From contig JBLKOK010000001.1 in assembly GCA_047602735.1 (NCBI GenBank), forward strand, positions 14,261 through 78,260: DNA of 64,000 nt. The letters are read 5' to 3'. The translations under genes and the position numbers were made by a program. A model generated the notes under the pieces. The model was not told the DNA's origin. It made no database searches and worked only from the letters and a program-made list of their open reading frames with translations. Below, piece by piece: positions 1 to 58,877 of the stretch (positions within the stretch are counted from its first letter, which is position 1; the number at the start of each line of letters is the position of its first letter). This DNA comes from Candidatus Woesearchaeota archaeon (GTDB lineage Archaea > Nanobdellota > Nanobdellia > Woesearchaeales > 21-14-0-10-32-9).

Positions 1-1
1 T

Positions 2-1042: not shown

Positions 1043-1072
1043 TTGTAAAAAAACTTTTTTTCTTTTTTTCTT

Positions 1073-3932: not shown

Positions 3933-3980
3933 AATAGTTATTTAGAATTCTTCACTAATAAACTTTTCTATAAATAAAAA

Positions 3981-11340: not shown

Positions 11341-12105
11341 TCAAATATGTTTTTTAGCATAATCATAACCCTTATTGATTATCTTTATGTATTCTTCGTC
11401 TTTTTTTAAGAAATTAAGAGCGAAATATTTAGCTAAATCCACTTTAACATAAATAAACTCATCAAACTTGGATTGTTCTAAAAATAATTCTTTTGTTCTT
11501 TGAGCAGCATTTTTTTGAGATATGTATAGGCTTTGTCTTAAAACATCCAATAAATTAGGATTGTCTAACTCTAAAAGCGCACTAACAACATCTATAACTA
11601 TTACTTTTTTAGATTTAGGTATAAAATTTACAGGAGTAGGTATTGTAAAACCTGCATCTACTAAGATCATATCATCCTTATTTACTGGTTTAAAAACACC
11701 CGGTATACTAATTGAAGCTCTTACAGCCTCCCATACTTTGCCAGAATCTAACTTTATTTCTTCTCCGTTTTTTATGTTTAGAGCATTTACTATTAAAGGA
11801 ATCTTTAAGTCTTTAAAGTCTAAGTCTAAATGTTTTTTTAAAAAATCATCTATTTTTTTTCCACCAATTAAAGATTCATTAAATAAAGAAAAGTCTAATA
11901 ACTTTAAAGATCTTGATGTTAATAAAAGTTCTTTTATTTTTTCACTCGAGTAGCCATTACAATATAGTGCACCTACTAAAGCCCCCATAGAGCTTCCAAT
12001 AATTAAATCTGGCGTTTCATTTATTTCTTCTAAATATTTTAATATACCAATATGGGCTAGCCCTTTAATACCTCCACTTCCAAGAACTAAAGTAAAATTT
12101 TTCAT
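11341..12105 (-). CDS. Patatin-like phospholipase
   Basis: GGGIKG oxyanion motif, GSSMG (GxSxG) nucleophile and a DAG motif (LVDAGFT). Confidence 0.8.
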   Translation of the reverse strand: MKNFTLVLGSGGIKGLAHIGILKYLEEINETPDLIIGSSMGALVGALYCNGYSSEKIKELLLTSRSLKLLDFSLFNESLIGGKKIDDFLKKHLDLDFKDLKIPLIVNALNIKNGEEIKLDSGKVWEAVRASISIPGVFKPVNKDDMILVDAGFTIPTPVNFIPKSKKVIVIDVVSALLELDNPNLLDVLRQSLYISQKNAAQRTKELFLEQSKFDEFIYVKVDLAKYFALNFLKKDEEYIKIINKGYDYAKKHI

Positions 12106-38754: not shown

Positions 38755-38782
38755 AGAATTCTAATTAAATGTAATGTTTTAT

Positions 38783-38798
38783 TAAATTATCTAAAAAT
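38783..38798 (+). repeat. 16-bp direct repeat TAAATTATCTAAAAAT, copy 1 (upstream of the NTase gene)
   Basis: Exact second copy at 39461..39476. Confidence 0.8.
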
Positions 38799-38827
38799 AT
38801 ATAAATTTAAGACTGATAAAAATTAAT

Positions 38828-39463
38828 ATGACTAGCTCAAAAAAAACAATACAATATATTAAGGATAATACTAATAAAGAAAACTACGTAACTATGTTTG
38901 TAGCAGGATCTATACCTCAAGAATTAATAAAAGGTTCAGATTTAGATATATTTTTTATTGTTAAAGAAGAAAAAAAAAATGAATTCTTTGAAAATATTAC
39001 TAATATTATGAACAAATATCTTAAAAACAAACAAGATATTAAATACACATTTTTTAGAGGCCCTATAAAATATAAAAATAAAGGATTAATACATTTTGTT
39101 ATATATTTAAAATCTAAAAAACCAGATTTTGAAGACAGAGCACAATTCATAGGAGAATCAAGACCAGTTCTAAAAAGCTTATTAGCAAAACATGAAATAA
39201 TAAATGGTGAAAGAATAGAGCAGTTACTAAAAAACGTGGATTTTTCAAATACAAATATAACTAAAAAAGACATAAGTAAAATGAGAACTAAACATGAACG
39301 TCTAATTAAAGAAGATAAAATTTGTTATTCTGAATGGAAAAAAACAAAGAATGGATGGCAATTCATAAGAACAAATAAAAAAGTGAGTAAATATCTTAAA
39401 AATTATTTGAATAACTATTATACAAAACATATAAACAATGCTTTAAAAAAGTTAAAAAAATAA
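38828..39463 (+). CDS. Nucleotidyltransferase-domain protein
   Basis: AGSIPQELIKGSDLDIFFIV (GS...DxD). Confidence 0.55.
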   Translation: MTSSKKTIQYIKDNTNKENYVTMFVAGSIPQELIKGSDLDIFFIVKEEKKNEFFENITNIMNKYLKNKQDIKYTFFRGPIKYKNKGLIHFVIYLKSKKPDFEDRAQFIGESRPVLKSLLAKHEIINGERIEQLLKNVDFSNTNITKKDISKMRTKHERLIKEDKICYSEWKKTKNGWQFIRTNKKVSKYLKNYLNNYYTKHINNALKKLKK

Positions 39464-39476
39464 ATTATCTAAAAAT
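39461..39476 (+). repeat. 16-bp direct repeat TAAATTATCTAAAAAT, copy 2 (starts at the NTase stop codon, upstream of orc1/cdc6)
   Basis: Exact copy of 38783..38798. Confidence 0.8.
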
Positions 39477-39519
39477 TTAGGAATAAAGTATATAAATAAC
39501 AGACCATAAACAAAGAATT

Positions 39520-40575
39520 ATGGGAGTTTTTGACGACGTACTTAAAGCAAATCAAACATTAATAAAAAACGATGCAGCACTAGATTACGAATTCTTACCA
39601 AAAATTTTACCGTACAGAGAAAACGAACAAAAGTATCTGGCTACTTGCATAAAACCATTATTTCAAGAAAGAAGCGGAAGAAACTTATTTATTCACGGAG
39701 CACCAGGTATTGGAAAAACAGCAGCCACGAGACACGTTCTTAGAGATTTAGAAGAACAAACAGATGAAATAGAACCATTATACATTAACTGTTGGCAAAA
39801 AAATACTACTTACAAAGTTCTTTTAGAAATATGTGATTTGTTAGGTTATAAATTTACACAAAACAAAAAAACAACCGAGCTATACAAAGTTATAACAACT
39901 ATACTAAATAAAAAAAGCGCAGTATTTGTGTTTGATGAAATAGATAAAGCAGAAGATCTGGATTTTTTATATTTTGTTTTAGAAGAAGTACACAGAAAAT
40001 GTGTGTTTTTGATAACTAATTATAAGTCATGGTTAGTAGAACTTGATGAGAGAATAAAAAGCAGACTTATACCCGAGATGAATGAGTTTAAACAATATAG
40101 CCTAGAAGAAACTAAAGGAATTCTTAAAGACAGACTAGACTACGCGTTTTATCCAGGAGTTTGGAGAGATGAATGTTTTAGTTTAGTAGCTCAAAAAGCC
40201 GCTAGCCTAAAAGATATTAGGAGCGGATTATTTTTATTAAAAGAAAGTGCTCTTCAAGCAGAAGATAATTCAAGAAAAAAAATAGAGCTAGAAGATGTCA
40301 AATCAGCAATAAAAAAACTTGAAGATTTTACCATAAAAAATAGTACTGAGCTAGAAAAAGAAAGCCAATTAATCTATGAATTAGTTAAACAGCATTCAGG
40401 TAAAAAAATAGGAGATTTATTTGAAATTTACCAACAAAGAGGAGGAGGAAGTAGCTATAAGACTTTTCAAAGAAAAATATCTAAACTCGAAGAAGGTAAG
40501 TTCATAAAAACAAAAAAACAAACAGGTGCAGGCGGAAATACAACGATAGTTGAAAAAAAACTTAGCGATTATTAG
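39520..40575 (+). CDS. cdc6: Orc1/Cdc6 replication initiator
   Basis: LPYRENEQKYL, Walker A GAPGIGKTA, Walker B VFVFDEIDK, and a C-terminal winged helix. Confidence 0.9.
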   Translation: MGVFDDVLKANQTLIKNDAALDYEFLPKILPYRENEQKYLATCIKPLFQERSGRNLFIHGAPGIGKTAATRHVLRDLEEQTDEIEPLYINCWQKNTTYKVLLEICDLLGYKFTQNKKTTELYKVITTILNKKSAVFVFDEIDKAEDLDFLYFVLEEVHRKCVFLITNYKSWLVELDERIKSRLIPEMNEFKQYSLEETKGILKDRLDYAFYPGVWRDECFSLVAQKAASLKDIRSGLFLLKESALQAEDNSRKKIELEDVKSAIKKLEDFTIKNSTELEKESQLIYELVKQHSGKKIGDLFEIYQQRGGGSSYKTFQRKISKLEEGKFIKTKKQTGAGGNTTIVEKKLSDY

Positions 40576-41197
40576 CAAATAAATCTAAAACAGGCTCAGA
40601 ATAAAGCATGTTCTCAGTAATTCCTACTAAAAAAAGGTCAGAATCATATTTTTTATATAAATTAAATTTATGATAATCTGCCTTTAATACAAGATTTTTA
40701 ACATGATTAAATGAAAGATCTTTATCAAAAACTAAGTGTGTGTCTAAAATATTAACAAAATCGTCATCAAAATAAAATTTAGCCGCACTTCCTAAACCAA
40801 GCGATAAGAATTTATCCCTCACAACTTTTTTACAATTAACAGAATTTAAAGACATTTCAACAACATAATCGTAATCTTTTAAACTTAAATCCGCAGCTAC
40901 ATTAAAATAAGTACTGCTTAAAAGATCTGCAGTATCAGTAAAATAAGATAAATCACCTTGCTCTATATCAGGATATAACTTTATTAATTTATTTAATAAC
41001 CCCATATTAGAATTTATTTGCTCAGTAGACTTATTTTTAAAAAAAGGATCTAATAATGAATGTAAAAATTCCTTTTTTTCACTTACTACGAATCTATTAA
41101 TACCCTCACTTAAATATAATTCCTTATCACGAACTTTATTTGAATGAATCTTCTTAATCAATTTACTATCAGAAAGGTTTGAATTATTTTGATACAT
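40562..41197 (-). CDS. Hypothetical protein
   Basis: 211-aa ORF; its 3' end overlaps orc1/cdc6 convergently. Confidence 0.4.
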   Translation of the reverse strand: MYQNNSNLSDSKLIKKIHSNKVRDKELYLSEGINRFVVSEKKEFLHSLLDPFFKNKSTEQINSNMGLLNKLIKLYPDIEQGDLSYFTDTADLLSSTYFNVAADLSLKDYDYVVEMSLNSVNCKKVVRDKFLSLGLGSAAKFYFDDDFVNILDTHLVFDKDLSFNHVKNLVLKADYHKFNLYKKYDSDLFLVGITENMLYSEPVLDLFANNR

Positions 41198-41278
41198 TAA
41201 AAAAATAATAGTCTATAACAATATAAAAATATTTCTATTTACCACTATATAATGGTTTCTTGTTTTTCACTGGACAAG

Positions 41279-41290
41279 TCCGCGCGCGGA
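41279..41290. other. Perfect 12-bp GC palindrome TCCGCGCGCGGA in an AT-rich intergenic region
   Basis: Read directly from the sequence. It contains alternating (CG)4. Confidence 0.9.
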
Positions 41291-41334
41291 GTATATAAAC
41301 CAAATAAACAAAATAGTGTATGAGGTGATAAAAA

Positions 41335-41433
41335 ATGAATCACATAAAAAAAAATCCAAGATGTCATAGTAACGGACTTGAAATACAAAACATATTTTTT
41401 GAACAAATAAAAAAAATAAGCATTACGGCATGA
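41335..41433 (+). CDS. Tiny ORF 1 (32 aa) with strong Shine-Dalgarno
   Basis: GAGGTGA lies 6 nt before the ATG. Translation: MNHIKKNPRCHSNGLEIQNIFFEQIKKISITA. Not in the supplied track (<60 aa). Confidence 0.35.
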   Translation: MNHIKKNPRCHSNGLEIQNIFFEQIKKISITA

Positions 41434-41444
41434 GGTGAACAAAA

Positions 41445-41558
41445 ATGATTAGATACGGAGACAAAATCTTACCAGTTATGATGAGTCATAACTTAATAAC
41501 ACCAGAAGAAAGCGAAGAATACAGAACATATTTAGAAGGTGACTTTGAAAATGCATAA
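41445..41558 (+). CDS. Tiny ORF 2 (37 aa) with strong Shine-Dalgarno
   Basis: A second GAGGTGA lies 6 nt before the ATG. Translation: MIRYGDKILPVMMSHNLITPEESEEYRTYLEGDFENA. Confidence 0.35.
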   Translation: MIRYGDKILPVMMSHNLITPEESEEYRTYLEGDFENA

Positions 41559-41685
41559 GATATTAGACAAACTATTCGGAAAAACAAATTACATGGACTG
41601 GCAAGAGTATGAAAAAAGAGTTAATTTCATAGACCAATTTTACTGGCAACAAAGCGTTAGACAAAAGTCTTTAAAAAACACATAA
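41551..41685 (+). CDS. Tiny ORF 3 (44 aa), start overlaps the ORF 2 stop (ATGCATAA)
   Basis: AGGTGA lies 8 nt before the ATG. Translation: MHKILDKLFGKTNYMDWQEYEKRVNFIDQFYWQQSVRQKSLKNT. Confidence 0.35.
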   Translation: MHKILDKLFGKTNYMDWQEYEKRVNFIDQFYWQQSVRQKSLKNT

Positions 41686-41737
41686 TTTTTATTATTTTTC
41701 AATTAAATATATAAAAACAAGCATCTTCCCCTAAACT

Positions 41738-42325
41738 ATGGAAATAATAACTCAAGACGAATTATACAATTCCAAAAAAAAATATTTCGAATTCTTAAAA
41801 AACGATATATTTATTCATCCAACAGAATGGGGTTATGCCCTTAGCTGTGATGCAACAAACCATAAACTAATAGAAAAGGTTAGAGAAACAAAAAAAACAC
41901 TTCTACAACCATTCTCAATAATACCTCCAAGTAAAGACTGGGTTTTACAAAACTGTGAATTAAATGAAGCGCAAAAAAAATACTTAAATACACTCGGAAA
42001 AAGAGTTAAAATAGATGAAAAAGAACATATAGTAACACTTGTTTTAAAACTAAAAAATAAAGACGCAATAGCAAAAAACGTCGCTCCAGGATTTGACACA
42101 ATAGGAATAAAAATACCTAGTCACTGGTTTTCTGAAATAGTTAGAGAAATAGAAAAACCCCTAATTAGCACAAGTGCAAACACTATCGGAGATAACTTTG
42201 TTTCATCACTAGATGATTTATCAAGTAAAATAAAAAACATATGTAGCTTTGCAATAAATGAAGGAGAAAAGAAAGGAATACCCACAATAGTCATACAACC
42301 ACACGACTATAAAGACAGATCTTAA
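41738..42325 (+). CDS. tsaC: L-threonylcarbamoyladenylate synthase (YrdC/TsaC-type, single domain)
   Basis: YrdC-domain pattern IHPTEWGYALSCDATNHKLIEKVRETKK...PFSII and ISTSAN. Confidence 0.7.
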   Translation: MEIITQDELYNSKKKYFEFLKNDIFIHPTEWGYALSCDATNHKLIEKVRETKKTLLQPFSIIPPSKDWVLQNCELNEAQKKYLNTLGKRVKIDEKEHIVTLVLKLKNKDAIAKNVAPGFDTIGIKIPSHWFSEIVREIEKPLISTSANTIGDNFVSSLDDLSSKIKNICSFAINEGEKKGIPTIVIQPHDYKDRS

Positions 42326-43740
42326 CCTTTTATAACACCCATAGGAAATACTTTTGCAACAAGTAAACCAATACCTGCTTTATGACTAACTTTTACTACT
42401 TCATCTACATCTTTATATGCACCAGGAGCTTCTTCACTTATACCTCTAAGAGTTGAAGCCTTGACAAGAATTTTTCTTTTTTCTAAAGAATCTTTAATCT
42501 CTTGACCAGTCCAAGACTTAGTTGCTTTAAAACGAGATAATAAACGTCCAGCACCATGAGCAGTACTGCCAAAACTTTCATCCATAGCTTTTTGAGTGCC
42601 TGCAAGAACATAACTGCTTGTACCCATACTCCCAGGAATAAAAATAGGCTGACCCGTTTTTTTATACCTTTTAGGAATCTCAGGATTGTTTGGACCAAAA
42701 GCCCTAGTAGCTCCTTTTCTATGAACCCACACTTTTTGTTTTTTATCATCTATTATGTGTTCTTCTAACTTAGCAATGTTATGCGCAACATCATACACAG
42801 TTTCAAGTTTAGACTCGGGAAATATTTCCTTAAAAGCCTCACGAGTTTGATGACCAATTAAATGACGATTAGTCCAAGCAAAATTAGCAGCACTACACAT
42901 AGCAGCATAATACTCTTTTGCTAAATCTGACTCAGCAGGCGCATAAGCTAAGTTTTTATCAGGTAAATCCTTAATTAAATCAGGAAAAGTATCTTCTATT
43001 TTTCTAAGATAATCACTACAAACCTGATGACCTAACCCACGGCTTCCTGTGTGAATTAAAACAACTACTTGATCTTTTTTAGTTATTCCAAAAACATCAG
43101 CGATTTCTTTATCAAAAATTTCTCCAACATATTGTATTTCTAAGAAATGATTACCAGAACCAAGAGTTCCAAGCTGGGCTCTGCCTCTTTTTTTAGCTTT
43201 ATCACTAACTTTTGAAGGATCAGCACCAATAAGCTTACCGTTACTTTCACAATTTTCAATATCTTCTTTTAATCCAAGACCTCTTTTAATCATAACAGAA
43301 GGTCCTTCAATCATTACTTCATCTAATTCCTCATTTGTTAATCTAAAAATTGATTTTTCGCCAACACCAGGAGGAACTTTTTTGTATAATAAATCTAATA
43401 ACTCTCTTAATCTAGGTTCAACTTCTGATCTTGTAAGATTAGTTGTTAATAAACGCACGCCGCAATTCACATCGAATCCTACTCCACCAGGACTCAAACA
43501 ACCATCTTTGTGATCTGTTGCAGCAACTCCTCCAATACTAAACCCATAACCTTGATGAGCATCAGGCATCATTATACTAAAACCCTTGATACCTGGAAGA
43601 TGAGCTACGTTTATTCCTTGTTTTAAAGAATCGTCTTGCTTCATCTTATCCATAAGCTTTTGTGAAGCAAATATTTTTACAGGAACATTCATCTTACCTG
43701 TTTTTTCTATTAAGTAAGAATAATCATTTAATTTTTTCAT
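42322..43740 (-). CDS. rtcB: RNA 3'-phosphate ligase RtcB
   Basis: GGVGFDVNCGVR, GSGNHFLE, HTGSRGLGHQV and HGAGR. Confidence 0.95.
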   Translation of the reverse strand: MKKLNDYSYLIEKTGKMNVPVKIFASQKLMDKMKQDDSLKQGINVAHLPGIKGFSIMMPDAHQGYGFSIGGVAATDHKDGCLSPGGVGFDVNCGVRLLTTNLTRSEVEPRLRELLDLLYKKVPPGVGEKSIFRLTNEELDEVMIEGPSVMIKRGLGLKEDIENCESNGKLIGADPSKVSDKAKKRGRAQLGTLGSGNHFLEIQYVGEIFDKEIADVFGITKKDQVVVLIHTGSRGLGHQVCSDYLRKIEDTFPDLIKDLPDKNLAYAPAESDLAKEYYAAMCSAANFAWTNRHLIGHQTREAFKEIFPESKLETVYDVAHNIAKLEEHIIDDKKQKVWVHRKGATRAFGPNNPEIPKRYKKTGQPIFIPGSMGTSSYVLAGTQKAMDESFGSTAHGAGRLLSRFKATKSWTGQEIKDSLEKRKILVKASTLRGISEEAPGAYKDVDEVVKVSHKAGIGLLVAKVFPMGVIKG

Positions 43741-48837: not shown

Positions 48838-49143
48838 TTATTTTAATAACTTAGTTCCACAAAGATGACAAAAATTACTATTAGAGTAATGTTTAGCTCC
48901 ACATACATGACATCTTATAATAGTTTTATCTTGAACAACTTTAGGTTTTTCTTGTTTTATTGGTTCCTCTTTATCTTTTAAAACAAATTTTAAGATTAAT
49001 TTAAACACACCATATATTATAAACCCAATACCTATGTAAAAAAATAAGATTATACCATTATTTTCAGTTCTTTGATTGACAAAACTAGAAAAAAAACTAA
49101 TAGCACCCCCTAAAATTATGTATACTAAGCTTGGAATCTTCAT
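48838..49143 (-). CDS. Membrane protein with C-terminal zinc ribbon
   Basis: Two TM helices followed by CHVCG...CHLCG. Confidence 0.5.
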   Translation of the reverse strand: MKIPSLVYIILGGAISFFSSFVNQRTENNGIILFFYIGIGFIIYGVFKLILKFVLKDKEEPIKQEKPKVVQDKTIIRCHVCGAKHYSNSNFCHLCGTKLLK

Positions 49144-50408
49144 ATTTTTTTCATACCATACATATAAGGCCTTAAAACTTTAGGTATAGTTAAAGACCCA
49201 TCTTCGTTTTGATAATTCTCTAAAATAGCCACCATTATCCTACTTGTCGCAATAGCAGTACTGTTTAATGTGTGAACTAATAAATTTTTATCTTTATCTT
49301 TAAACTTAATATTTGCTCTTCTAGCTTGATAATCAGTATAGTTTGAATTACTACATGTTTCTTTGTATTGCTGTTGTCTTGGCATCCAAGTTTCAATATC
49401 ATATTTTTTTGCCGCGAAATTTCCAAGATCCCCCGTACAAATATTTACAACCCTGTAAGGCAATCCTAATTTTTTATGAAGCTCCTCAGCGTTCTTTTGA
49501 AGTTCTTCATGCAACTTATATGATTCTTCAGGTTTACATAATATTACTTGTTCTACTTTGTTAAACTGATGAGTTCTAAAAAGACCTTTAGTATCAATCC
49601 CATGACTCCCTATCTCTCTTCTAAAACACATAGAATAACTACAAATCTTTATTGGAAGTTGATCTGCCTCAAATAATTCGTCTTTGAACTGAGCAAGTAA
49701 AGGATGCTCAGAGGTAGCTATTAAATATTTATCTTCACCTTCGATCTTATACATTACGTCCTCAAAATCTTCAAGACTGACACCAGTTTCATACGCATCT
49801 TTATTTAACATATAAGGAACCTCAGTGTAATTATATCCTTTTGATACTAATGAATCTACTGCAAGCCTTATAAGTGCTTGATTTAGTAAAGCTAGCTTTC
49901 CTTTTAATATATAAAAACCTGATCCAGATATTTTAGCTGATCTTTCAAAATCTGCTACATTCAAACTTTCAGCTAACTCACTATGCGGTTTTAATTCAAA
50001 ATCTTTTTTTACAGGTTCACCCCAAGTTCTTATAGATACATTTTCAGAATCATCCTTACCATAAGGAACAGACTCGTGCATTAAGTTTGGAAGTGATTTT
50101 AATATTAAATCTATTTCTTGCTCTAATTGTTTTCTTTTTTCTTCAGATTCTTTTATTTTAACAGGAATATTTTTTACTTGAGCTAATACTTTAGAAGCAT
50201 CCTTTTTTTGTTTTTTTAACTCAGCTACTTGTTTACTTAGAGTGTTTCTTTGACTTCTTAGCTGATCTTCTTCATGCTTTAATTTTCTCCAATCAAGATC
50301 TAATTTTACTACTTTTTTTACAGATTTAATTTTTTCAGTATCTTTTCTTTTTTCTAAATCTTTTATTAGTACATCCGGATTTTCCCTTATTAATTTAATG
50401 TCTTGCAT
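49140..50408 (-). CDS. serS: Seryl-tRNA synthetase
   Basis: MQDIKLIRENPD start, N-terminal coiled-coil arm, class II motifs FRREIG and GDLG..AAKKYDIE.W. The start is trimmed to 50408 from the listed 50453. Confidence 0.92.
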   Translation of the reverse strand: MQDIKLIRENPDVLIKDLEKRKDTEKIKSVKKVVKLDLDWRKLKHEEDQLRSQRNTLSKQVAELKKQKKDASKVLAQVKNIPVKIKESEEKRKQLEQEIDLILKSLPNLMHESVPYGKDDSENVSIRTWGEPVKKDFELKPHSELAESLNVADFERSAKISGSGFYILKGKLALLNQALIRLAVDSLVSKGYNYTEVPYMLNKDAYETGVSLEDFEDVMYKIEGEDKYLIATSEHPLLAQFKDELFEADQLPIKICSYSMCFRREIGSHGIDTKGLFRTHQFNKVEQVILCKPEESYKLHEELQKNAEELHKKLGLPYRVVNICTGDLGNFAAKKYDIETWMPRQQQYKETCSNSNYTDYQARRANIKFKDKDKNLLVHTLNSTAIATSRIMVAILENYQNEDGSLTIPKVLRPYMYGMKKI

Positions 50409-50721
50409 GAAGTTTATTAAACATATCTTTAATAAAAAGGTTTTGGTGAGCAAATTAATTACAATATAGAAAATAAATAAGGGTGTCTCGACTCAAAAAT
50501 TAGAAATATTTATATAGTAGTTATACTTTATTAATATATTAGTCGTTTTGGTGAGTTAAGCTGAGAAATTATATATATACAAACAAACTTTTTTCTAGAA
50601 CCCAATCAAACAGGTTCAACAACTTTAGGCTTAAGACGCAAACAAAAACGCAACCAACATCTTTTCAATGCAAAAGTAATTACGTTGCAGCCTAAAAAAA
50701 CTATTTTTTTTATTTCTTTTT

Positions 50722-52659
50722 TTAAACTAATTTTATGAAACTAGAATTTATGCTATTTATTAGCAATTTCAATCTATCAAACAAAGATAAGTTAACATAA
50801 GAAAAATCTAAAGACTTAGAAACCTCATAAGTTTCCCCATGTATATCTTGATAAGTAATAATTATTTGCATGTCCTTATTTGATAGCTTAAAATATTCTT
50901 TAGGTATTACTATGTTTGATTCAGACTTCGTGCTTAAAGTTTCTATATAATAAGATTTTCTAAACAAATCATTTCTAATAACTACATCCACATTTAACGG
51001 ATTAGAAGAACTATCTTTAATTAATATCATGTTAAACCCTTGATCTTTGTACTCAGACACATAGTTAAAACCTTCAAGCACAATTGATAAAGAAGGCCTA
51101 TCTATTATGTTTACAGGAATGAAATTAACAAAAGAACCCTCCGCGCCATTATAAGATACAACTAAGGTAGTGTAACCAACAGATAAATTTATAGGTATTT
51201 CAATAGTAGAACTACCACTAGCTAACTCATAATTTTGACAATTGTTTTCAATACAAATATTTGCTAAATCTTCAAAATCTAAATGTACTTCACAAATAAT
51301 TTTACTTTCATAACCAACATAACCAGTTGATAATAACTCACAGCTAAAATCAACAACTTCAGATTCTTGTTGTTCTAAGTCAAGAGTTCTTATATAAGCA
51401 TTTGAAATAGTTTTACCTGTACTAGAAACTGTGAATACTTCTCTTTTTTGCTCACCCATATTAGAATAAACAACAACAGGAAAACTATACAAAAAATTAG
51501 AATCTAGCCTACTTACATAAACAACCCACTGAATCTGTTTTGATTCATAAGGACCCAATAATAAATCAAATCTTTCTTCAGACAAAATACTTAACTCATC
51601 AACCGTAGCAATATTATAAGACCTCGCGACATAATAATTATTTAGATTAGTTATATTAGCCCTTACAACATTATAAGAATCAAAACTTATACTGTCTTCT
51701 TCAAATACTACGTTAATTAAAACATCATCTTGCTTATCTTCACCAATTTGTAATAGTTCACTTGAAATAGATAGTGCTCCAGGATTAACCTCAACATTTC
51801 TAGCAGACCAAGTAAAAGTATTTGGATACTTACTACTGTCAACCCCATGATTGAACTTTATGTGAGTAGCATCAACAAAACCTAACTGATTATACGTAGG
51901 ATCAAAAGGAATCCAACCATAACCCGGGAAATACACTTCAGCCCAACCATGCGCACCCCAATTTTCATCAAATAAAACAGAATCAGTATAAGCCATACCA
52001 GAAACAAACCTTGCAGGAATACCAAGACTTCTAAGCATAGATATAAACAAATTACTAAGCTCTACACAAACACCTTCCCTATTTTCAAATACCCAGCTAC
52101 TAGGAAGAGAAGCCTCAGCTGTTAAGGTGCTGAGATTATATTCAATATTTTTATTAACCCACACACCGATATCAAAAACTACTTGATACAAATCATCTTG
52201 ACCCTCAGCTAGCATAAAAGCCTTGTTTCTTATATCATCATTTATGTCAATTAACTCAGTTTGATCAAGATAGGTAACTAAGCTTTGATTTAAGTTTCTT
52301 ATAGGAAACTCAACTTTTCTATCAACCCTTACAGGCTCAAGCGTAGAATTAGTTATAGTTACAACTTCAATCGTAAAATCTTCTGGTTCATTTATTCTTA
52401 TTGTGTATTTGTCTTCACTTAAAATTCCTTGCTGACTTAAAAATAATTCATTTACTTCTTGCCTATAATCACTCTTAGGTATCCAAGAAAATTCAACCTC
52501 TAAATAATCAAATCTGTAGTTTTGTCTTAGATCAAACTCAACAGGATTTGTTATAGTCGTCTCAACAACTGCCCACTGCTTTGTTTGAAGAGGCTGAGCA
52601 GATACAAAACCTATAGCTAAAACGACTATTAATAATACTAATAACCTCTTCATACACAT
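50722..52659 (-). CDS. Secreted transglutaminase-like (papain-fold) domain protein with beta-rich C-terminal modules
   Basis: Signal peptide MKRLLVLLIVVLAIGFVSA. Core EGVCVELSNLFISMLRSLGIPARFVSG...HGWAEVYFPGYGWIPFDPT gives a Cys-His-Asp arrangement. Confidence 0.75.
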   Translation of the reverse strand: MCMKRLLVLLIVVLAIGFVSAQPLQTKQWAVVETTITNPVEFDLRQNYRFDYLEVEFSWIPKSDYRQEVNELFLSQQGILSEDKYTIRINEPEDFTIEVVTITNSTLEPVRVDRKVEFPIRNLNQSLVTYLDQTELIDINDDIRNKAFMLAEGQDDLYQVVFDIGVWVNKNIEYNLSTLTAEASLPSSWVFENREGVCVELSNLFISMLRSLGIPARFVSGMAYTDSVLFDENWGAHGWAEVYFPGYGWIPFDPTYNQLGFVDATHIKFNHGVDSSKYPNTFTWSARNVEVNPGALSISSELLQIGEDKQDDVLINVVFEEDSISFDSYNVVRANITNLNNYYVARSYNIATVDELSILSEERFDLLLGPYESKQIQWVVYVSRLDSNFLYSFPVVVYSNMGEQKREVFTVSSTGKTISNAYIRTLDLEQQESEVVDFSCELLSTGYVGYESKIICEVHLDFEDLANICIENNCQNYELASGSSTIEIPINLSVGYTTLVVSYNGAEGSFVNFIPVNIIDRPSLSIVLEGFNYVSEYKDQGFNMILIKDSSSNPLNVDVVIRNDLFRKSYYIETLSTKSESNIVIPKEYFKLSNKDMQIIITYQDIHGETYEVSKSLDFSYVNLSLFDRLKLLINSINSSFIKLV

Positions 52660-52730
52660 AAAAATGCACTAACCTATATAAAACATTTTTGAAAACCTTT
52701 ATAAAAAAAATATGTATCCCTATAATATAT

Positions 52731-52854
52731 GCCCAGGTCGCATAGTCTGGTATTGCGCAGGATTGCTAAGAACTACATAGTCCTTATGAAAACCTACAAT
52801 ACCCGCAAACATCCTGTCCCTTTGGGATCGTGGGTTCAAATCCCACCCTGGGCG
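52731..52854 (+). tRNA. tRNA-Ser (anticodon GCU) with a ~42-nt intron at the canonical 37/38 position
   Basis: Acceptor GCCCAGG/CCTGGGC. Anticodon stem CAGGA/TCCTG (52758-62 / 52812-16) with loop TTGCTA. Anticodon at 52765-67, intron about 52769..52810. Long variable arm TCCCTTTGGGATC (class II), T-arm GTGGG-TTCAAAT-CCCAC, discriminator G, no encoded CCA. Confidence 0.85.
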
Positions 52855-52856
52855 TC
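52844..52856 (+). repeat. Direct repeat copy 1: CACCCTGGGCGTC (last 11 nt of tRNA-Ser plus 2 nt)
   Basis: Identical 13-mer recurs at 57719..57731. Confidence 0.8.
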
Positions 52857-52863
52857 TTTTTTT
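52857..52863 (+). terminator. Oligo-T tract directly after tRNA-Ser
   Basis: A run of seven T starts 3 nt after the discriminator base. Archaeal RNA polymerase terminates at oligo-T. Confidence 0.4.
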
Positions 52864-52874
52864 CTATAATGTTT

Positions 52875-52885
52875 TGGGCGTCTTT
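52875..52885 (+). repeat. Partial extra copy TGGGCGTCTTT of the tRNA-Ser 3' end/trailer
   Basis: Identical 11-mer at 52849..52859, 26 nt upstream. Confidence 0.6.
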
Positions 52886-53279
52886 ACCTAGACAAATACT
52901 TCGTCATCATATCTTTTATATCTTCAAATTCTAGTCTTGATAAGAAATCTTCTTTGTTTAGCCAAACATAATCTATATGTTCATCAGATATATTCATATT
53001 GGAACCATGAACTTTGACGTGATAATAGTGAATAGTCCTTGTTTTTTGCTTATTTGTTTTTTTACTAATAAAACTAAATGTAATTTCCCCAATTTTTTTA
53101 TGAATAGAACTTTTATCAATACCTGTTTCTTCCAACAACTCTCTATTAATAGTTTGATCATGAGTTTCGCCAGGCTCTATATGTCCTTTACAAGGTTCCC
53201 ATACCCCTGTATCTTTTCTTTTAAGCAACAAAAACTTATTTTCACTCTCAACTAAAAGCCCTACTCCATCTTCTCCCAT
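52884..53279 (-). CDS. Nudix hydrolase
   Basis: Nudix box GHIEPGETHDQTINRELLEETGI. Confidence 0.8.
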   Translation of the reverse strand: MGEDGVGLLVESENKFLLLKRKDTGVWEPCKGHIEPGETHDQTINRELLEETGIDKSSIHKKIGEITFSFISKKTNKQKTRTIHYYHVKVHGSNMNISDEHIDYVWLNKEDFLSRLEFEDIKDMMTKYLSR

Positions 53280-54001
53280 TCTTTTAACCTCTTATATACA
53301 TACTTAACTTCTAAAAAAATATGTTCAGTGTTATTAAAATTTTCTTCGATTGTAATTATAAAATCTTTTTTTCTTGGAAATTTTTCGAGCATTTCAGTCA
53401 AAGCAATACCATTTTTTTGCTCTAAAAAAAATTGCAGGTGATGAACCCCATCAATAATATTACTAAGATGTATATGATTTATATGGTTTTTTAATTTTGA
53501 AGTGAGTAAATTAAATTCATCTCTACCAAAATGATAAGCATGACTTGTGTCTAAAGTCATATTTAACAAATTATTTTTTTTAAAAACGTCGATTATTTTT
53601 TCTCCATTCCAATCCCCAGTTAAAGTATTCTCAATTGTAAAAGGATAATTAAATTTTTTTAACAACTCAACACTTTCAACGTTATATAAATGCCAAACAA
53701 CATGTTTAGCTTTCACAAGTTCAGCAAAAGAAATTATTCTTTTAAATAATAATTCATAGTTTTCTTTTGTGACAAAAAATTTTTTGAACGGAGCATGAAC
53801 AATATTAGATCTGAAAGATTGTAAAAAATTTATGTGATCTTTATCTTCTTCTATTTCAGTCATTTCACTTTGATTTGCCATACATAGTTCAAGACCATCA
53901 AGATATTTACGAAGTCCTGAATTATCAATAAGAATTCTTTGATCTTTTAATGTCATTCTTAATTTGTAAAACGTACCAGTTCCTAAAAATAATTTATTCA
54001 T
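53261..54001 (-). CDS. Xylose-isomerase-like TIM-barrel protein (sugar phosphate isomerase/epimerase or AP-endonuclease-2 superfamily)
   Basis: HVVWHLYN, TLDTSHAYHFG and INHIHLSN are spaced as in this fold. Confidence 0.55.
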   Translation of the reverse strand: MNKLFLGTGTFYKLRMTLKDQRILIDNSGLRKYLDGLELCMANQSEMTEIEEDKDHINFLQSFRSNIVHAPFKKFFVTKENYELLFKRIISFAELVKAKHVVWHLYNVESVELLKKFNYPFTIENTLTGDWNGEKIIDVFKKNNLLNMTLDTSHAYHFGRDEFNLLTSKLKNHINHIHLSNIIDGVHHLQFFLEQKNGIALTEMLEKFPRKKDFIITIEENFNNTEHIFLEVKYVYKRLKEWEKME

Positions 54002-54795
54002 CTAACTAACCTCTCAAATCTTTTTGCTTCTTCTTTGTAAAGACACTTTTTAATATCAGGTCTTATTTTTTCTAATCTAACTAATGTATTCATCACAGAC
54101 GCCTTTTTTTGATTAAAATCTTTTCCATGTTCGTAAAGCAATCTTTTTGCTAAATCTACTCCTAATCTATCAATAGAAGGTTCGATAAACCCATCCTTGT
54201 CAAAAAGTATTACTGGTTTACTCATTAATTTATTATGAGGAGAACCCGAATAATAAGTATCATTTATAATTCTACAAGTTTCCATAGGTACTTTAAAACC
54301 CCCTTCAATTATTTCATTTTCAACGTGAACCGCCATAGAACTTCCTTCAAAATTCTTAAAGCGATAAATATATTCTTTTGGAACCTTTCTAAATGAATAT
54401 AGAGTTTGAGGTGTTATTCCATTAGCAAATTTATCAACAAAAATATCTGGAGTCATAAAATGAACAGTAATCAAATTATGTTCACCATCAACTGTTTCAT
54501 GTCTAGTGCTCATAAGATTTGTTTGATCAGTCATCATGTAGTTTATTGCTTTTTTTGCATCAACATTATATCCTTCAAAAATAGGACTTTCTAAAACAGA
54601 CTTAATGTCTTCTGGTTGACAAAAAACCATAGTATCAAGGTCTGTTCCCTCTCTAATAGCATAATTCATACTATGAGCTGTTGTACCTACAATTATTGAT
54701 GCTCTTGAATGTGGCTCAACACTTTTAATAAATTTTTCTGTTAATTTTTCTAAACTTTTTTGTCTTTTGTCATTATTTACAAATTTTTTTATCAT
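53998..54795 (-). CDS. Hypothetical protein, probable nucleotidyltransferase fold
   Basis: IIVGTTAHSMNYAIREGTDLDTMVF resembles G[ST]-x(9-12)-DxD. This is weak evidence. Confidence 0.4.
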   Translation of the reverse strand: MIKKFVNNDKRQKSLEKLTEKFIKSVEPHSRASIIVGTTAHSMNYAIREGTDLDTMVFCQPEDIKSVLESPIFEGYNVDAKKAINYMMTDQTNLMSTRHETVDGEHNLITVHFMTPDIFVDKFANGITPQTLYSFRKVPKEYIYRFKNFEGSSMAVHVENEIIEGGFKVPMETCRIINDTYYSGSPHNKLMSKPVILFDKDGFIEPSIDRLGVDLAKRLLYEHGKDFNQKKASVMNTLVRLEKIRPDIKKCLYKEEAKRFERLVR

Positions 54796-55667
54796 CTTAT
54801 CGTATCCCTCACTTTATACCCTGCTATATATCTTTTAACTCCAAAATCTTCAACAATTGATTCAAGAACAGGTTTTTCACCAGTCCATTGTTTAACTCTT
54901 TTTTCGTTGATAGGATCAAAAGGAGTATTATGCCATGAACCATAAGGAACAGAAATAACAATTATATCCTTTGAAAGACTTTTTAGTTTTGAATAAAATT
55001 TTTTTGGATCGTCAACATGTTCTAATACTTGTTGACATAAGACTATATCGTACTTTCCTTCTGGTTTATAATCGAATATATCCATTTCAATACAATTTAT
55101 ATCCTTAGGATATACAAAGTCATTTGGAAATTCATTATCAATAGCAAATTTTTGATAAGTATTAGGAAACATGTCGAGCGTGACTGTAGAATCTTTAATA
55201 CCAACATCCAGTATTTTTCCATGTTTTGTTACACTCATTTTAGATGCAAAGTTAAATGCTTCACGATAATATTTGAAATTTTTTCTAAATTCTCCATAAT
55301 TTTGAATCATCTGCCAATATTGCCAGTTTTCATCAGAAAATTTTCCTTTTAATATTGAAAATACTTCAGGTAATTTTTTTAATATTTTTGTATGAAATTC
55401 ATCTAATTTTCTCTCATTAAGATAGTATATTATCTTATTATCTTTTATATTAGGATCGTGTGATTCTAATGAGACTAAGGAAGTAATATTATTATTTAAT
55501 TTAATATTTGTATTACTAAAATCAACAATGTATTCAATTATATTAAAATCATTATTATCTTTGTGGTTATAATTTCTTTTTGTGATAAGAGGAATATTTT
55601 TTCCTTTACTTAATTTTTTAATATACCTTTCAAGTTTGGGTTCGTTGTTTTTAAGTAAAAATTTCAT
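54792..55667 (-). CDS. Class I SAM-dependent methyltransferase (C-terminal domain) with unknown N-terminal domain
   Basis: KILDVGIKDS (motif I-like), YDIVLCQQVLEHVDDP (motif II/III), and IVISVP. Confidence 0.6.
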   Translation of the reverse strand: MKFLLKNNEPKLERYIKKLSKGKNIPLITKRNYNHKDNNDFNIIEYIVDFSNTNIKLNNNITSLVSLESHDPNIKDNKIIYYLNERKLDEFHTKILKKLPEVFSILKGKFSDENWQYWQMIQNYGEFRKNFKYYREAFNFASKMSVTKHGKILDVGIKDSTVTLDMFPNTYQKFAIDNEFPNDFVYPKDINCIEMDIFDYKPEGKYDIVLCQQVLEHVDDPKKFYSKLKSLSKDIIVISVPYGSWHNTPFDPINEKRVKQWTGEKPVLESIVEDFGVKRYIAGYKVRDTIR

Positions 55668-56551
55668 AATATTTCACGCTCTACAAAATCAACTATATCA
55701 CTTAATTTTCCCGATGTTGCGTATGAAGGAGTACTATCTGTCAGTTGTTTCATTTTATGTAATATTTTTTGTCTTTCTTTATATGCAACTGGAGTGGTTA
55801 AAGGCATAAGATTGCTTACTAGCAAACGAGGGAATTCCTCTAAGAAATAATAGCCTTGATTTACAAACCTTGTGAGTTTGGGCGTGCCATTTAACTCAAT
55901 TCCCATAAAATTTCCTGAATGTTTTTGTGGATAAACAATAGCATCTATCCCAGTAGGTTCAAAATGGTAGTTAAAAGGACTTTGTTCAGGTGAAAAAGTC
56001 ACTCTGTTTTCAAATTTATAATTTCTTAATATTTCTGAAAAATAAGGAAACTCTTCGGCTAAAGACGCTGCATTAAAATTCAAAATTTTGGTACCTGCAA
56101 CTATCATTTCATTATCAATTAAAGTTCTATCTCCAGAGATTATCTTTGTATCAGGTCTTCTTTTAATTAATTCCATCATAAAAGTTGTTTTCCCAGCACC
56201 AGAACGACCAGGTATAAGAATTGTTTTATCATCTATTCTTACAGCAGATGAATGAATTGAATAAATTCCTTTTTTTGACCAAAGATACTCAGAAATCTTA
56301 GAAGTAATAGCCATAATGTCTTCACTAATTATTTTTTGAGTACTATAAATTGCTTCTTCATTCGAGATATTGAAAATAGGTTTTCCTTCTTGTATCTTAA
56401 TAAGAAAATCTTTTGTTGGCTCAATAATTATTTTATCTATAGATTCTTCTATTTTTACATCAGGAATATATTGTCTGATAAGCTTTTTTGTTTTATCATT
56501 GGGAGAAAAATCATTAAAAATAATATTTTGTAGATACATCTCTAATTTCAT
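55664..56551 (-). CDS. HPr-kinase-like P-loop protein (HprK-related kinase family)
   Basis: HSSAVRIDDKTILIPGRSGAGKTTFMMELIKR parallels the HprK C-terminal-domain pattern H..a......g.l..G.SG.GKS..a.eL. Confidence 0.5.
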   Translation of the reverse strand: MKLEMYLQNIIFNDFSPNDKTKKLIRQYIPDVKIEESIDKIIIEPTKDFLIKIQEGKPIFNISNEEAIYSTQKIISEDIMAITSKISEYLWSKKGIYSIHSSAVRIDDKTILIPGRSGAGKTTFMMELIKRRPDTKIISGDRTLIDNEMIVAGTKILNFNAASLAEEFPYFSEILRNYKFENRVTFSPEQSPFNYHFEPTGIDAIVYPQKHSGNFMGIELNGTPKLTRFVNQGYYFLEEFPRLLVSNLMPLTTPVAYKERQKILHKMKQLTDSTPSYATSGKLSDIVDFVEREIL

Positions 56552-57633
56552 TTACTTACCTCCTTCAAGAGAAACTCATTTATAATTGCTTCCTCAACAC
56601 CTATGAGTTTATATTTACCAATTTCAGTTAAAAGAACAAATTTCATCTTTCCATTAGACGATATTTTATCTGTTTTAAATGAATATATCATACTTTTTAT
56701 TTGTTTTGAAGTGATTTTAAGTTCAGGTAAATTTTTTGATAAAAGACTAGTCATATTAGTATGATGTTTATAGTTTATTTCATCTAACATACCTAGTTTG
56801 TAAGATAATTTTGCTGCTAATTCCATCCCTTTTAGAACAGCTTCCCCATGATTTATTGTTTGATCTATACTTTCAATCGCATTGGCAAAAGTATGACCAT
56901 AACTTAACGCTTTGTGAACTCCTGTTTTATCATAAGGATCCTGTTTAACAAAAAAAGCTTTGATATTATGAGAAATTTGTATTACGTTTTTTCTATCAGT
57001 TAAAGATTCTTCATTATTAGCAATTTTTATTATAATGTCTTTAAAATACTTTTTATCAATTAGTTTAGAATGTTCTTTATAATTTGTTATAAAATAATGT
57101 TTTAATACTTCAACAAGTCCTTGCATCATTAATTTTCTAGGCATAGATGAAATAAATATATCTTCTATAATTATATACTTTGGACTATAAAACGAACCAA
57201 ATACGTTTTTCTTTTCATTAGATATAGCAACTTTCCCAATAATGTGGTCACTCATTGACATAAAAGATGTTGGAATTTGTATAAAATCTATTCCTCTCAT
57301 ATAAATTGATGCACAAAAACCTGTAATATCTCCAGTAACACCTCCACCCACCCCTATAATACAAGAATCTCTATCAAGATTCTTATTTGTCAATTGTTTT
57401 AATATCGGCACAACATTATTCAAATTTTTAGTCTTTTCATAAGGAGATATGAGAATTATATCTTTGAAATTGTTATCCACATAATTTTTGTGCAACCTAT
57501 AAATATTTTCATCAACTAAAGCAATAATTTTGGAATAATCAGATAGATCGATATCATCGATGGAATATAATAAAACAGGAAGCTCATTCTTAGTAATATA
57601 TTCTTCTCTGTTAAAGTAAAAGTTACTAATCAT
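56548..57633 (-). CDS. 3-dehydroquinate-synthase-like sugar phosphate cyclase
   Basis: IGVGGGVTGDITGFCASIYMRGIDFIQIPTSFMSMSDHIIGKVAISN, ALSYGHTFANAIE and NHGEAVLKGM align motif-for-motif with the DHQS/EEVS/DOIS superfamily. Confidence 0.8.
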   Translation of the reverse strand: MISNFYFNREEYITKNELPVLLYSIDDIDLSDYSKIIALVDENIYRLHKNYVDNNFKDIILISPYEKTKNLNNVVPILKQLTNKNLDRDSCIIGVGGGVTGDITGFCASIYMRGIDFIQIPTSFMSMSDHIIGKVAISNEKKNVFGSFYSPKYIIIEDIFISSMPRKLMMQGLVEVLKHYFITNYKEHSKLIDKKYFKDIIIKIANNEESLTDRKNVIQISHNIKAFFVKQDPYDKTGVHKALSYGHTFANAIESIDQTINHGEAVLKGMELAAKLSYKLGMLDEINYKHHTNMTSLLSKNLPELKITSKQIKSMIYSFKTDKISSNGKMKFVLLTEIGKYKLIGVEEAIINEFLLKEVSK

Positions 57634-57676
57634 AAGTAGTATACTTGCAAAATAATTTATAAATTTTATTTCTTAT

Positions 57677-57697
57677 TTTTCGGAAAATATACGAAAA
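57677..57697. promoter_or_regulatory. Inverted repeat TTTTCG-N9-CGAAAA upstream of the cyclase operon; shares TTTCGGAAAA with the 30476 site
   Basis: Read directly from the sequence. Lies 44-64 nt upstream of the 57633 start codon. Confidence 0.35.
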
Positions 57698-57718
57698 AGA
57701 GCAAATAAACTAATTGTT

Positions 57719-57731
57719 CACCCTGGGCGTC
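57719..57731 (+). repeat. Direct repeat copy 2: CACCCTGGGCGTC
   Basis: Exact match to the tRNA-Ser 3' end (52844..52856). Lies in the intergenic gap between the cyclase operon and the dehydrogenase gene. Confidence 0.8.
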
Positions 57732-57752: not shown

Positions 57753-58877
57753 TTAACTTATTTTTATTAGCTTACCACTATCAGTTATTACATATAAATA
57801 ATCATCAGGACTTTGAGATACATCTCTAATTCGCTCCCCTAAGTTTTTTAGTAGCGGCTCTGCTTGTTTTACTTCACCATCTTCTTGTATTATAAATCTT
57901 CCAAGGTATTGACCTGCCAAGTTACCCACAAATAAATCTCCGTTAAACTTTTCTAATCGTTCACCTTGATAAAAAATCATACCTGCAGGAGGAAATCCAC
58001 CAGTACCACATTCCCAAACATAAACAGGGTTTTCAACGTCTTCATTCTCAAATTCCGATTCTGCTACAGGCGTGCTTGTCCCATACCTACAACCAGAGTG
58101 AGCAATTGGCCAACCATAATTACTTCCTGATCTTATGATATTTATTTTATCTCCGTCTCGCTCACCGTGTTCGCTTGCCCATAACTCATTTGTAACAGGG
58201 TTTAATGCTAAACCTTGAACATTTCTATGACCATAAGTATATATCTCATCTAAAACAGATTCATCATCAATAAATGGATTATCTAAAGGAACCGTTCCAT
58301 TTTTATATAATCTTATTATTGTTCCTAAATAATTTTGGGTGTCTTGAGAAACGTGTTGAGGACCAAAATTTTTTTGTCCCCTATCACCCGTACTATAATA
58401 TACATATTCTCCTTGAGTTATAACTCTAGATCCAAAATGCGCACCTCCTTGCATAAAAGGTGTTGCTATGTGAATTACTTCAAATTCTTTAAGAGCTAAT
58501 TTTTCTAAATCTAATATTGCTTTACCTAAATGCGTTGCATATCCTTGATCGTTTGAAGCACTATAAGTCAAATAAACATAACCTTCATTAAAATGAACAT
58601 CTAACAAACCCCCTTGACCAATATTTGATATTTGAGGTAAACCAGACAATTTTACTTTATGAAAGTTTTCTAAATTTAAATAAATTAAATCCCCTTGCTT
58701 TTCAGTTATTAAAATTTGATTTTCAGATATAAATTCTAATCCCCAAGGATTATTTAACTTTTCATAAACTACTTCATATGTATAATTTAATTCATCATTA
58801 AATACTTCTAACTGAGAAGTAGAGCACCCCATTAAAAAAATCGATGCTGTTATTAATATAAAAAAAACTTTTTTCAT
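57753..58877 (-). CDS. PQQ-dependent soluble sugar (glucose/sorbosone) dehydrogenase-like beta-propeller lipoprotein
   Basis: Lipobox-like signal MKKVFFILITASIFLMGCS; NNPWGLEF, GHRNVQGLALNP and SNYGWP. Confidence 0.8.
   Translation of the reverse strand: MKKVFFILITASIFLMGCSTSQLEVFNDELNYTYEVVYEKLNNPWGLEFISENQILITEKQGDLIYLNLENFHKVKLSGLPQISNIGQGGLLDVHFNEGYVYLTYSASNDQGYATHLGKAILDLEKLALKEFEVIHIATPFMQGGAHFGSRVITQGEYVYYSTGDRGQKNFGPQHVSQDTQNYLGTIIRLYKNGTVPLDNPFIDDESVLDEIYTYGHRNVQGLALNPVTNELWASEHGERDGDKINIIRSGSNYGWPIAHSGCRYGTSTPVAESEFENEDVENPVYVWECGTGGFPPAGMIFYQGERLEKFNGDLFVGNLAGQYLGRFIIQEDGEVKQAEPLLKNLGERIRDVSQSPDDYLYVITDSGKLIKIS

Follow-up and report, generated by a model that had tools for sequence, protein, structure and literature searches.

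A sugar phosphate cyclase operon bracketed by copies of a tRNA-Ser(GCU) 3' end in a woesearchaeon, probably a small integrated islet

We analysed a 64,000-nt stretch of DNA (hereafter the window; 28.9% GC) from a member of the Woesearchaeota (DPANN archaea), in which a six-gene operon that begins with a sugar phosphate cyclase gene ends close behind a tRNA-Ser(GCU) gene. The operon is flanked by a direct repeat, one copy of which is the functional 3' part of the tRNA gene. On balance, we regard the 4,862-bp segment between the repeats as a small islet integrated at tRNA-Ser(GCU), either decayed or mobilised in trans, a reading that we hold to be probable rather than secure. An earlier note on this DNA had proposed that the operon was delivered as, or sits on the remnant of, an integrated element. 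Our results bear this out in part, by independent though circumstantial evidence: the trailer sequence behind the distal repeat, the patchy occurrence of the gene cassette, the variability of the site and a precedent on the related contig L325 (L numbers are our labels for the sequences compared) speak for it, while the missing empty site, host-like codon usage and lack of a cognate integrase speak against it.

The direct repeat and the tRNA 3' end

The repeat is the 13-mer CACCCTGGGCGTC, which a pattern search of the window locates at 52844-52856 and at 57719-57731, both on the + strand; with two mismatches permitted, the same search returned no third copy in the 64 kb. Under a model of independent and identically distributed bases, an exact match is expected 1.3e-5 times per window strand, and in 100 dinucleotide shuffles the mean number of matches was 0.10, with two or more matches in 0 of the 100. 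The earlier note had the coordinates, the orientation and the identity with the tRNA end right, as the sequence, the pattern search and Rfam agree, and its remark that a GC-rich 13-mer should be rare by chance now has figures attached to it.

The tRNA-Ser(GCU) gene, which is the proposed attB target, is intact (52731..52854, + strand; Rfam RF00005, 45.8 bits) and has a TATA-like TTTATAAAA about 30 nt 5' of it, as read from the sequence. Its anticodon loop contains an intron of ~42 nt, because of which ARAGORN misses the gene. Without the intron, the gene folds as a class II cloverleaf that has a long variable arm and the anticodon GCU (z = -4.0), and its intron-less orthologues are called tRNA-Ser(gct). 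From the RF00005 match, the fold and the orthologues together, it follows that the tRNA closes with the 11 nt at 52844-52854 and that 52855-52856 belong to the trailer. The proximal copy of the repeat (52844..52856, + strand), proposed as the attL core, is thus made up of the last 3 nt of the T-stem, the 3' strand of the acceptor, the discriminator G and 2 trailer nucleotides. The distal copy (57719..57731, + strand), proposed as the attR core, is followed by the native-type trailer CTTATTTT and lies, as the earlier note had placed it, in the gap between the operon and the next gene, that is, within the 119 nt from the cyclase start at 57633 to the stop of a GSDH-type sugar dehydrogenase gene at 57753. 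No tRNA-like fold was found around the distal copy. The two copies stand 27 nt from the stop of the operon's last gene, which encodes a NUDIX hydrolase, and 85 nt from the cyclase start. As a control, the other tRNA gene of the window (tRNA-Gln), which also has a GC-rich 3' end, showed no repeat of 10 nt or more.

Insertions in tRNA-Ser(GCU) vary among relatives. The gene lacks an intron in L010 and L322 and has a single one in the window, in L008 and in L016. The insert of L009 (6864-7031) is longer or additional, and L330 (about 60-221) has two, of which one is apparently in the T-loop. All of the intron-bearing copies are missed by ARAGORN, and those of L009 and L330 are also missed by Rfam.

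The sequence that follows each copy of the repeat carries information on the direction of the event. Among relatives with the same acceptor stem, the three closest have TCC and then T-rich sequence after the tRNA (GCG, then TCC...): tRNA end and trailer read CACCCTGGGCGTCCTTATTTTATG (= ...GTCCTTATTTTATG) in L008, ...GTCCTTTTTTCT in L009, and ...GTCCCTTTTTT (also given as ...GTCCCTTTTTTTT) in L010. The distal copy of the window reads ...GTCCTTATTTTT (CACCCTGGGCGTCCTTATTTTT), with 21 nt identical to the tRNA end and trailer of L008, whereas the proximal copy, still attached to the tRNA, diverges right after the core (GTCTTTTTTTC). A native trailer at the distal copy and divergence at the proximal copy are what site-specific integration predicts, with attR native and attL leading into element DNA. 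The displaced copy thus appears to have kept the native downstream sequence; because the trailer is short and T-rich, this evidence is modest, directional rather than strong.

The recombination event that we infer from these observations would have run as follows. The chromosomal tRNA 3' end (attB) would have recombined with a DNA circle that held the six-gene cyclase operon and, as attP, a copy of the tRNA-Ser(GCU) 3' end, with a tyrosine integrase as the most likely catalyst. The tRNA would have been rebuilt from the element's copy, forming attL, and the TCTTTTTTTC that now follows the tRNA would be element-derived; the original 3' end with its native trailer would have been pushed 4.9 kb downstream as attR (CACCCTGGGCGTC-CTTATTTT), beside the old downstream gene, GSDH. 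The outcome would be an islet with its own TATA-type promoter before the cyclase gene and without a recombinase. Either the integrase would have been lost by deletion, as is visibly under way in a related genome, or the cassette would have been mobilised in trans by the tRNA-Ser-specific integrase of another element, in the manner of a cis-mobilisable element (CIME). Under integration, the empty site would be expected to read ...GGTTCAAATCCCACCCTGGGCGTCCTTATTTTTAAAGAAAC and the circle (attP) ...AAACTAATTGTTCACCCTGGGCGTCTTTTTTTCTATAATG.

We give very little credence to the alternative that the repeat arose by chance or serves a function, for example as a binding site for a regulator before the operon promoter. 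It is true that the distal copy, 85 nt 5' of the cyclase ATG, stands at a possible operator place, and that a partial copy described below shows that an octamer of the core can recur. However, the chance expectation is about 1e-5, no similar motif lies 5' of the cyclase gene in the related cassettes of L088, L090 and L092, and a regulatory role would leave the continuity of the trailer with the tRNAs of relatives unexplained.

The tRNA-Ser(GCU) site in related archaea

A precedent for integration at this gene is found in the woesearchaeal metagenome-assembled genome (MAG) JBAZVO01, where L015 (about 1-3659, - strand) covers the same region as Logan contig L325 (124-5722). Here the tRNA-Ser(GCU) end TTCAAATCTCACCCCGAGCGCTT recurs 5,576 nt downstream as TTCAAATCTCGCATCGAGCGCTT (20/23 identical; 0/200 shuffles), which gives a 5.58-kb segment with a 23-nt repeat at both bounds. 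The repeat begins in the T-loop and, in L325 as in the window, ends 2-3 nt beyond the discriminator. The tRNA is followed first by an open reading frame (ORF) of 170-190 aa that corresponds to the N-terminal part of a family of 410-445 aa. A word-index homology search with this L015 fragment matched only the fragment itself, and an exhaustive HMMER search was needed, which aligned it to residues ~25-180 of the family (115 hits). Seven full-length members all contain the PF00589 catalytic domain (7/7, about residues 155-330), and the family has an invariant four-cysteine zinc ribbon C-terminal to it (C360, C362, C373 and C376 in P0242). Given the alignment to the family and the PF00589 domain of its full-length members, the L015 ORF is a truncated tyrosine integrase. 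The full-length P0242, 48% identical, is encoded ~80 nt 3' of another tRNA-Ser(GCU) (L330/L331; L330 309-1643). In addition, L016 has a pair of genes for a membrane protein and an HTH_45 (winged helix-turn-helix) protein only 0.3 kb after tRNA-Ser, and the homologous pair lies at 7.6 kb in L325, so that the two contigs can be read as a near-empty and an occupied form of one site. The data from L325, P0242 and L016 lead to the conclusion that tyrosine integrases using tRNA-Ser(GCU) exist in this lineage, and that such elements lose their integrase in place. The L325 segment is itself best described as a decaying integrated element, possibly as two in tandem.

Two further observations concern these elements. 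The integrase family (P0242-P0355) has at least two members encoded directly 3' of tRNA-Ser(GCU), on AT-rich archaeal contigs. In L325, a Bro-N protein is encoded outside the repeat, after the 5.58-kb segment.

The L015/L325 element resembles the islet of the window in its target tRNA, its orientation, the end of its repeat 2-3 nt past the discriminator, its size (5.6 kb) and its lack of a functional integrase. It differs in keeping a truncated integrase and small ORFs of the mobile-element type, and in its 23-nt imperfect repeat, and it shares no gene with the islet. The comparison also bears on a further alternative, insertion without an integrase, in which a circular or linear fragment would have entered by microhomology-mediated recombination or by a homologous single crossover at a chance identity of 13 bp, leaving the same direct repeats. 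The absent recombinase, the shortness of the repeat and the lack of recognisable arm-type repeats, save for one partial copy, would all suit such an event. We nevertheless think it highly unlikely, because the repeat agrees in position and in right-hand boundary with that of the integrase-associated element found at the orthologous tRNA, and because an identity of 13 bp is very short for RadA-type recombination. In addition, tyrosine integrases classically target the 3' ends of tRNA genes (PMC9897764, citing Williams 2002 and Reiter 1989).

Around the tRNA, the chromosome has a conserved side and a variable side. To the left, a transglutaminase-like protein (TGase; 50722..52659, - strand; Pfam) and seryl-tRNA synthetase (SerRS; 49140-50453) are encoded in the conserved neighbourhood of tRNA-Ser; the left flank also has further housekeeping genes (XPD-type helicase, adenylate kinase, RtcB). 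The adjacency of TGase and tRNA-Ser is kept in L008, L009, L015, L016, L321 and L322, and the DNA 3' of tRNA-Ser is different in each of these six, which marks the site just 3' of the tRNA, as judged from the contigs compared, as a synteny breakpoint. On the right, beyond the islet, stands the GSDH-type sugar dehydrogenase gene, whose product is of the pyrroloquinoline quinone (PQQ)-dependent type (57753..58877, - strand; PF07995, 5e-102), followed by housekeeping genes, for a signal-peptidase-like protein, GTPases (among them a YchF-like one), RFC and DoxX. The closest SerRS, 77% identical, is that of MAG CSBr16_71, and in NCBI the cyclase and GSDH proteins of the window are both labelled 'Candidatus Woesearchaeota archaeon'. 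The cluster of SerRS, the TGase-like gene and tRNA-Ser(GCU) (window 49140-52854) recurs across Woesearchaeota (L008, L009, L015, L016, L026, L031), which links a synthetase gene with that of one of the tRNAs that it charges. Downstream of SerRS, the product of 48838-49143 (- strand) is a small conserved protein that has a membrane segment at its N terminus and a CxxC...CxxC zinc ribbon at its C terminus.

The six-gene cassette and the weighing of its origin

The 4,862 bp between the 13-mers (52857-57718) hold six co-directional, overlapping ORFs on the - strand, from 52884 to 57633. The first gene (56548..57633, -) encodes a sugar phosphate cyclase of 361 aa, similar to 3-dehydroquinate synthase (DHQS), with DHQ_synthase and DHQS_C domains; it scores 245 bits against the aroB model, under the cutoff of 305, and in the PDB it matches true DHQS best (1.6e-38), ahead of DOIS, DDGS and EEVS. 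The second (55664..56551, -) encodes a P-loop kinase-like protein of 295 aa with an HprK/PEPCK-like nucleotide-binding region (weak PEPCK_ATP, Hpr_kinase_C and HprK_rel_B matches), in which the motif GxxGxGKT is invariant among orthologues and for which a PDB profile search gave weak P-loop matches only. It is followed by a S-adenosylmethionine (SAM)-dependent methyltransferase of 291 aa (54792..55667, -; Methyltransf_23, 1.3e-6) and by a conserved protein of 265 aa (53998..54795, -) without assigned function. The latter has no match in Pfam, NCBIfam, PHROGs or the PDB (profile search included), nor in plasmid or phage collections. It is conserved in L088, L090 and L092, being 56-70% identical to the products of the genes at the same position there, and its single-sequence AlphaFold model is unusable (predicted local distance difference test score of 36.6). 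The last two genes encode a probable xylose-isomerase-like TIM barrel of 246 aa (53261..54001, -; weak AP_endonuc_2 match, 8e-4, also given by its orthologues in L090 and L092) and the NUDIX hydrolase of 131 aa (52884..53279, -; PF00293, 2.8e-19). A TATA-like TTTATAAAT, read from the sequence, lies ~27 nt 5' of the cyclase ATG and inside the bracketed segment, so the six-gene block could have its own expression; a bacterial promoter and terminator scan was set aside, the host being an archaeon.

The same six genes in the same order occur in L088 (cyclase 67% identical), L092 (57%) and L090/L091 (55%), the last with a seventh, flavin adenine dinucleotide (FAD)-dependent, gene. The surroundings differ from one of these cassettes to the next; all abound in toxin-antitoxin genes (ParE, PIN, Fic), and no tRNA is nearby. 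The regions upstream of the cyclase genes show no significant similarity between cassettes. Beyond them, cyclase identity falls to about 40%. Among cyclase homologues at least 47% identical, none but the protein of the window itself stems from an NCBI genome, and no cassette genes were found near SerRS among GTDB relatives. The comparison suggests that the six genes form a conserved portable unit. A 'Phage_integrase' gene 1.3 kb past the L090 cassette was not counted, since its product has 271 aa, a XerA-like size, and no tRNA or att site is nearby.

Some features of the wider surroundings may be recorded here. L088 has a second NUDIX paralogue, 80% identical, 8.4 kb upstream (2126-2442 vs 10504-10820), as well as three copies of a non-coding repeat of 230-280 nt, about 80% identical (3056-3332, 3912-4195 and 11473-11702), which adjoin toxin-antitoxin and HTH genes in a highly mosaic region. 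The L090 neighbourhood also includes NDK, NUDIX and radical SAM genes. In bacteria of the candidate phyla radiation (CPR; Paceibacterota/Parcubacteria; L327 3956-9107 and L329 4837-9113), ~40%-identical cyclases are encoded in looser gene clusters, next to genes for NUDIX proteins (at times with a glycosyltransferase fused to them), methyltransferases, nucleotidyltransferases and NDK-like proteins.

A partial third copy of the repeat, TGGGCGTCTTT (52875..52885, + strand), overlaps the NUDIX stop codon and sits 26 nt after its twin in the proximal repeat, just as the earlier note had described it. The 8-mer TGGGCGTC occurs at only three sites in the window, namely both 13-mers and the copy at 52875. 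That note had taken the partial copy for a possible scar of a second event, a reading that our results do not support, as L088 has a similar octamer pair in the same place: the window's GACGCCCA-N18-GACGCCCA aligns gap-free with GACACCCA-N18-TACGTCCA of L088 (24/34 identical), a match of modest significance (its score was reached by 8/500 shuffles), and the L088 pair, too, stands directly 3' of the NUDIX stop. It would appear from this that the two octamers are part of the NUDIX-side flank of the cassette itself, i.e. the former attP region, and they may be recombinase-binding or attP-arm sequences. An octamer pair kept beside NUDIX in L088 would fit an element with its att site next to NUDIX.

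Several lines of evidence weigh against integration of the operon as an islet. The repeat is short, the similarity between its two copies stops at its 5' edge, and the 8-nt T-rich trailer match could partly reflect shared terminator function. No integrase relic was found in the islet or in the window, by Pfam searches of the islet and flanks or by tblastn and six-frame hidden Markov model (HMM) searches with the tRNA-Ser integrase family. Neither GTDB genomes nor JGI metagenomes nor the protein collection yielded an empty site, since even the nearest relative stands too far off: none comes closer than 77% SerRS or 72% GSDH identity, and both flanks are rearranged there. Wherever Logan contigs of the window's population extend to the site, it is occupied, and no circular form was found among assembled contigs. 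Finally, neither codon usage (p = 0.68) nor GC content at third codon positions (GC3; p = 0.45; Mann-Whitney tests) sets the six genes apart from the other 58 ORFs.

The host-like codon usage could mean either a similar donor, such as another AT-rich DPANN archaeon, or an old insertion. A comparison of composition with the flanks, which the earlier note had proposed, thus has a divided outcome, because the tetranucleotide profile of the islet is distinct: it falls in the top 1% of equal-sized intervals (z about 2.2), and among 4.9-kb intervals its deviation is exceeded by one region only, near 37.5 kb. That region, about 37000-42400, is as atypical as the islet (tetranucleotide distance of 0.0185 for the interval starting at 37501) and contains one ORF whose codon usage is unusual (37588-38754) and another that is very rich in AT (38828-39463, 21.9% GC).

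The searches for mobility genes and for related forms of the site were otherwise as follows. Pfam, NCBIfam and PHROGs show no recombinase, transposase or replication protein among the six genes, which, with the six-frame HMM and tblastn results, upholds the earlier note's observation that the operon has no integrase or mobility gene. A weak match of the integrase HMM at 48847-48963 was rejected, as only the CxxC...CxxC zinc ribbon of a conserved membrane protein is shared. That note had also looked to an empty site in which tRNA-Ser abuts the PQQ-dehydrogenase gene, and none turned up among relatives, whose flanks differ. For example, in GCA_007116295 (SerRS 77% identical), GSDH (72% identical) is on another contig with other neighbours, and the contig with the tRNA ends 95 nt after it; the short reading frame that follows the tRNA there is not GSDH. 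L321 and L322, which came from a metagenome scan with the tRNA 3' half, were dismissed as empty sites because, with TGase adjoining the tRNA, their downstream genes are unrelated; a supposed contig-end variant, L005, simply matches the occupied sequence. Three independent Logan assemblies (L001, L002 and L003) end inside tRNA-Ser, at window positions 52845, 52759 and 52816, and not at the repeat boundary, likely because tRNA k-mers are common to co-occurring relatives. In IMG/VR, the att-core 17-mer had no match, the 14-mers had only random and uninformative matches to GC-rich phage contigs, and the integrase profile found one unrelated contig of 58% GC. An integrase-bearing element with the same core, the other thing that the earlier note had thought worth seeking, was not found in the window, in relatives or in IMG/VR.

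In one alternative, the distal 13-mer would be an old scar, either of an att site or of a tRNA end, from some other and now lost element, with the operon being chromosomal DNA that arrived otherwise, by rearrangement or by replacement inside the old element. The host-like codon usage and GC3 and the absence of a mobility gene inside the segment agree with this account, and successive events are plausible because tRNA-Ser is a proven hot spot, with elements decaying in place there in a relative. We judge it unlikely all the same: the repeats enclose the operon tightly, with 27 nt and 85 nt to spare and no further content; elsewhere, too, the cassette occurs as a unit; and the NUDIX-side flank with its att-core-like octamer seems to travel along with it in L088. 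An integrated islet therefore remains the reading that we prefer.

Relation to known elements and significance

Compared with known tRNA-targeted elements, such as the thaumarchaeal cryptic integrated elements and PYG1 of Pyrococcus yayanosii, the islet has the same insertion at a tRNA 3' end, the direct repeat and the displaced attR fragment (PMC6563490; PMC9897764). As in tRNA-targeted elements of archaea and bacteria, its cargo is unrelated to core functions. Thaumarchaeal att sites have a median of 17 bp and go down to 8 bp, with one verified case of 13 bp (PMC6563490), and a 13-bp att is therefore ordinary for mesophilic archaea. There is also good documentation in archaea of tRNA-end fragments left as attR scars (PMC9897764). 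Unlike those integrative elements, the islet has no integrase or replication gene, is only 4.9 kb long, consists of a single metabolic operon and is largely host-like in composition. The SSV-type (Sulfolobus spindle-shaped virus) split-integrase proviruses are likewise archaeal, tRNA-targeted and flanked by att repeats, but in these the att sites are directly adjoined by int(N) and int(C) fragments (PMC7253208), whereas the ends of the islet are complete NUDIX and cyclase genes, so that no gene is split.

On the other hand, the islet shares with CIMEs the att copies on both sides, the lack of a recombinase of its own and a content of cargo only, and a tRNA-Ser(GCU) integrase family is present in related DPANN archaea. 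CIMEs and mobilisable islands, found in streptococci and vibrios, are flanked by att sites, lack an integrase and are mobilised in trans by a related integrative and conjugative element or provirus; to our knowledge, no class of this type has been described in DPANN. Unlike the situation in CIMEs, no cognate integrase-bearing element with this core was found in the window, in relatives or in IMG/VR; trans-mobilisation is conjecture. Taken further, the cassette could be a self-contained mobile metabolic module of ultra-small DPANN archaea, with a mimic of the tRNA-Ser 3' end beside NUDIX, inserted in trans by zinc-ribbon tRNA-Ser(GCU) integrases, which would make it an archaeal counterpart of CIMEs or of integron-like cassettes. 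We offer this as a speculation that is doubtful on present evidence.

This kind of structure is very well known, and the general picture of tRNA islands is unchanged by it, being extended to a little-studied lineage; the interest of the locus lies mainly in its host lineage and in the uncharacterised cyclase cassette. The six-gene pathway is accessory and portable; it is conserved and uncharacterised, and its product is probably a modified cyclitol or carbasugar. Given the related clusters in CPR bacteria, there are hints of a nucleotide-linked cyclitol pathway common to ultra-small archaea and bacteria. DPANN archaea have tiny genomes and depend on hosts, and the route by which they gain metabolic genes is an open practical question. 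In this respect, the locus of the window, together with the decaying element of L325, indicates that tRNA-Ser(GCU) is a recombination hot spot in Woesearchaeota, and suggests that complete operons can be delivered at this gene and then fixed by loss of the integrase.

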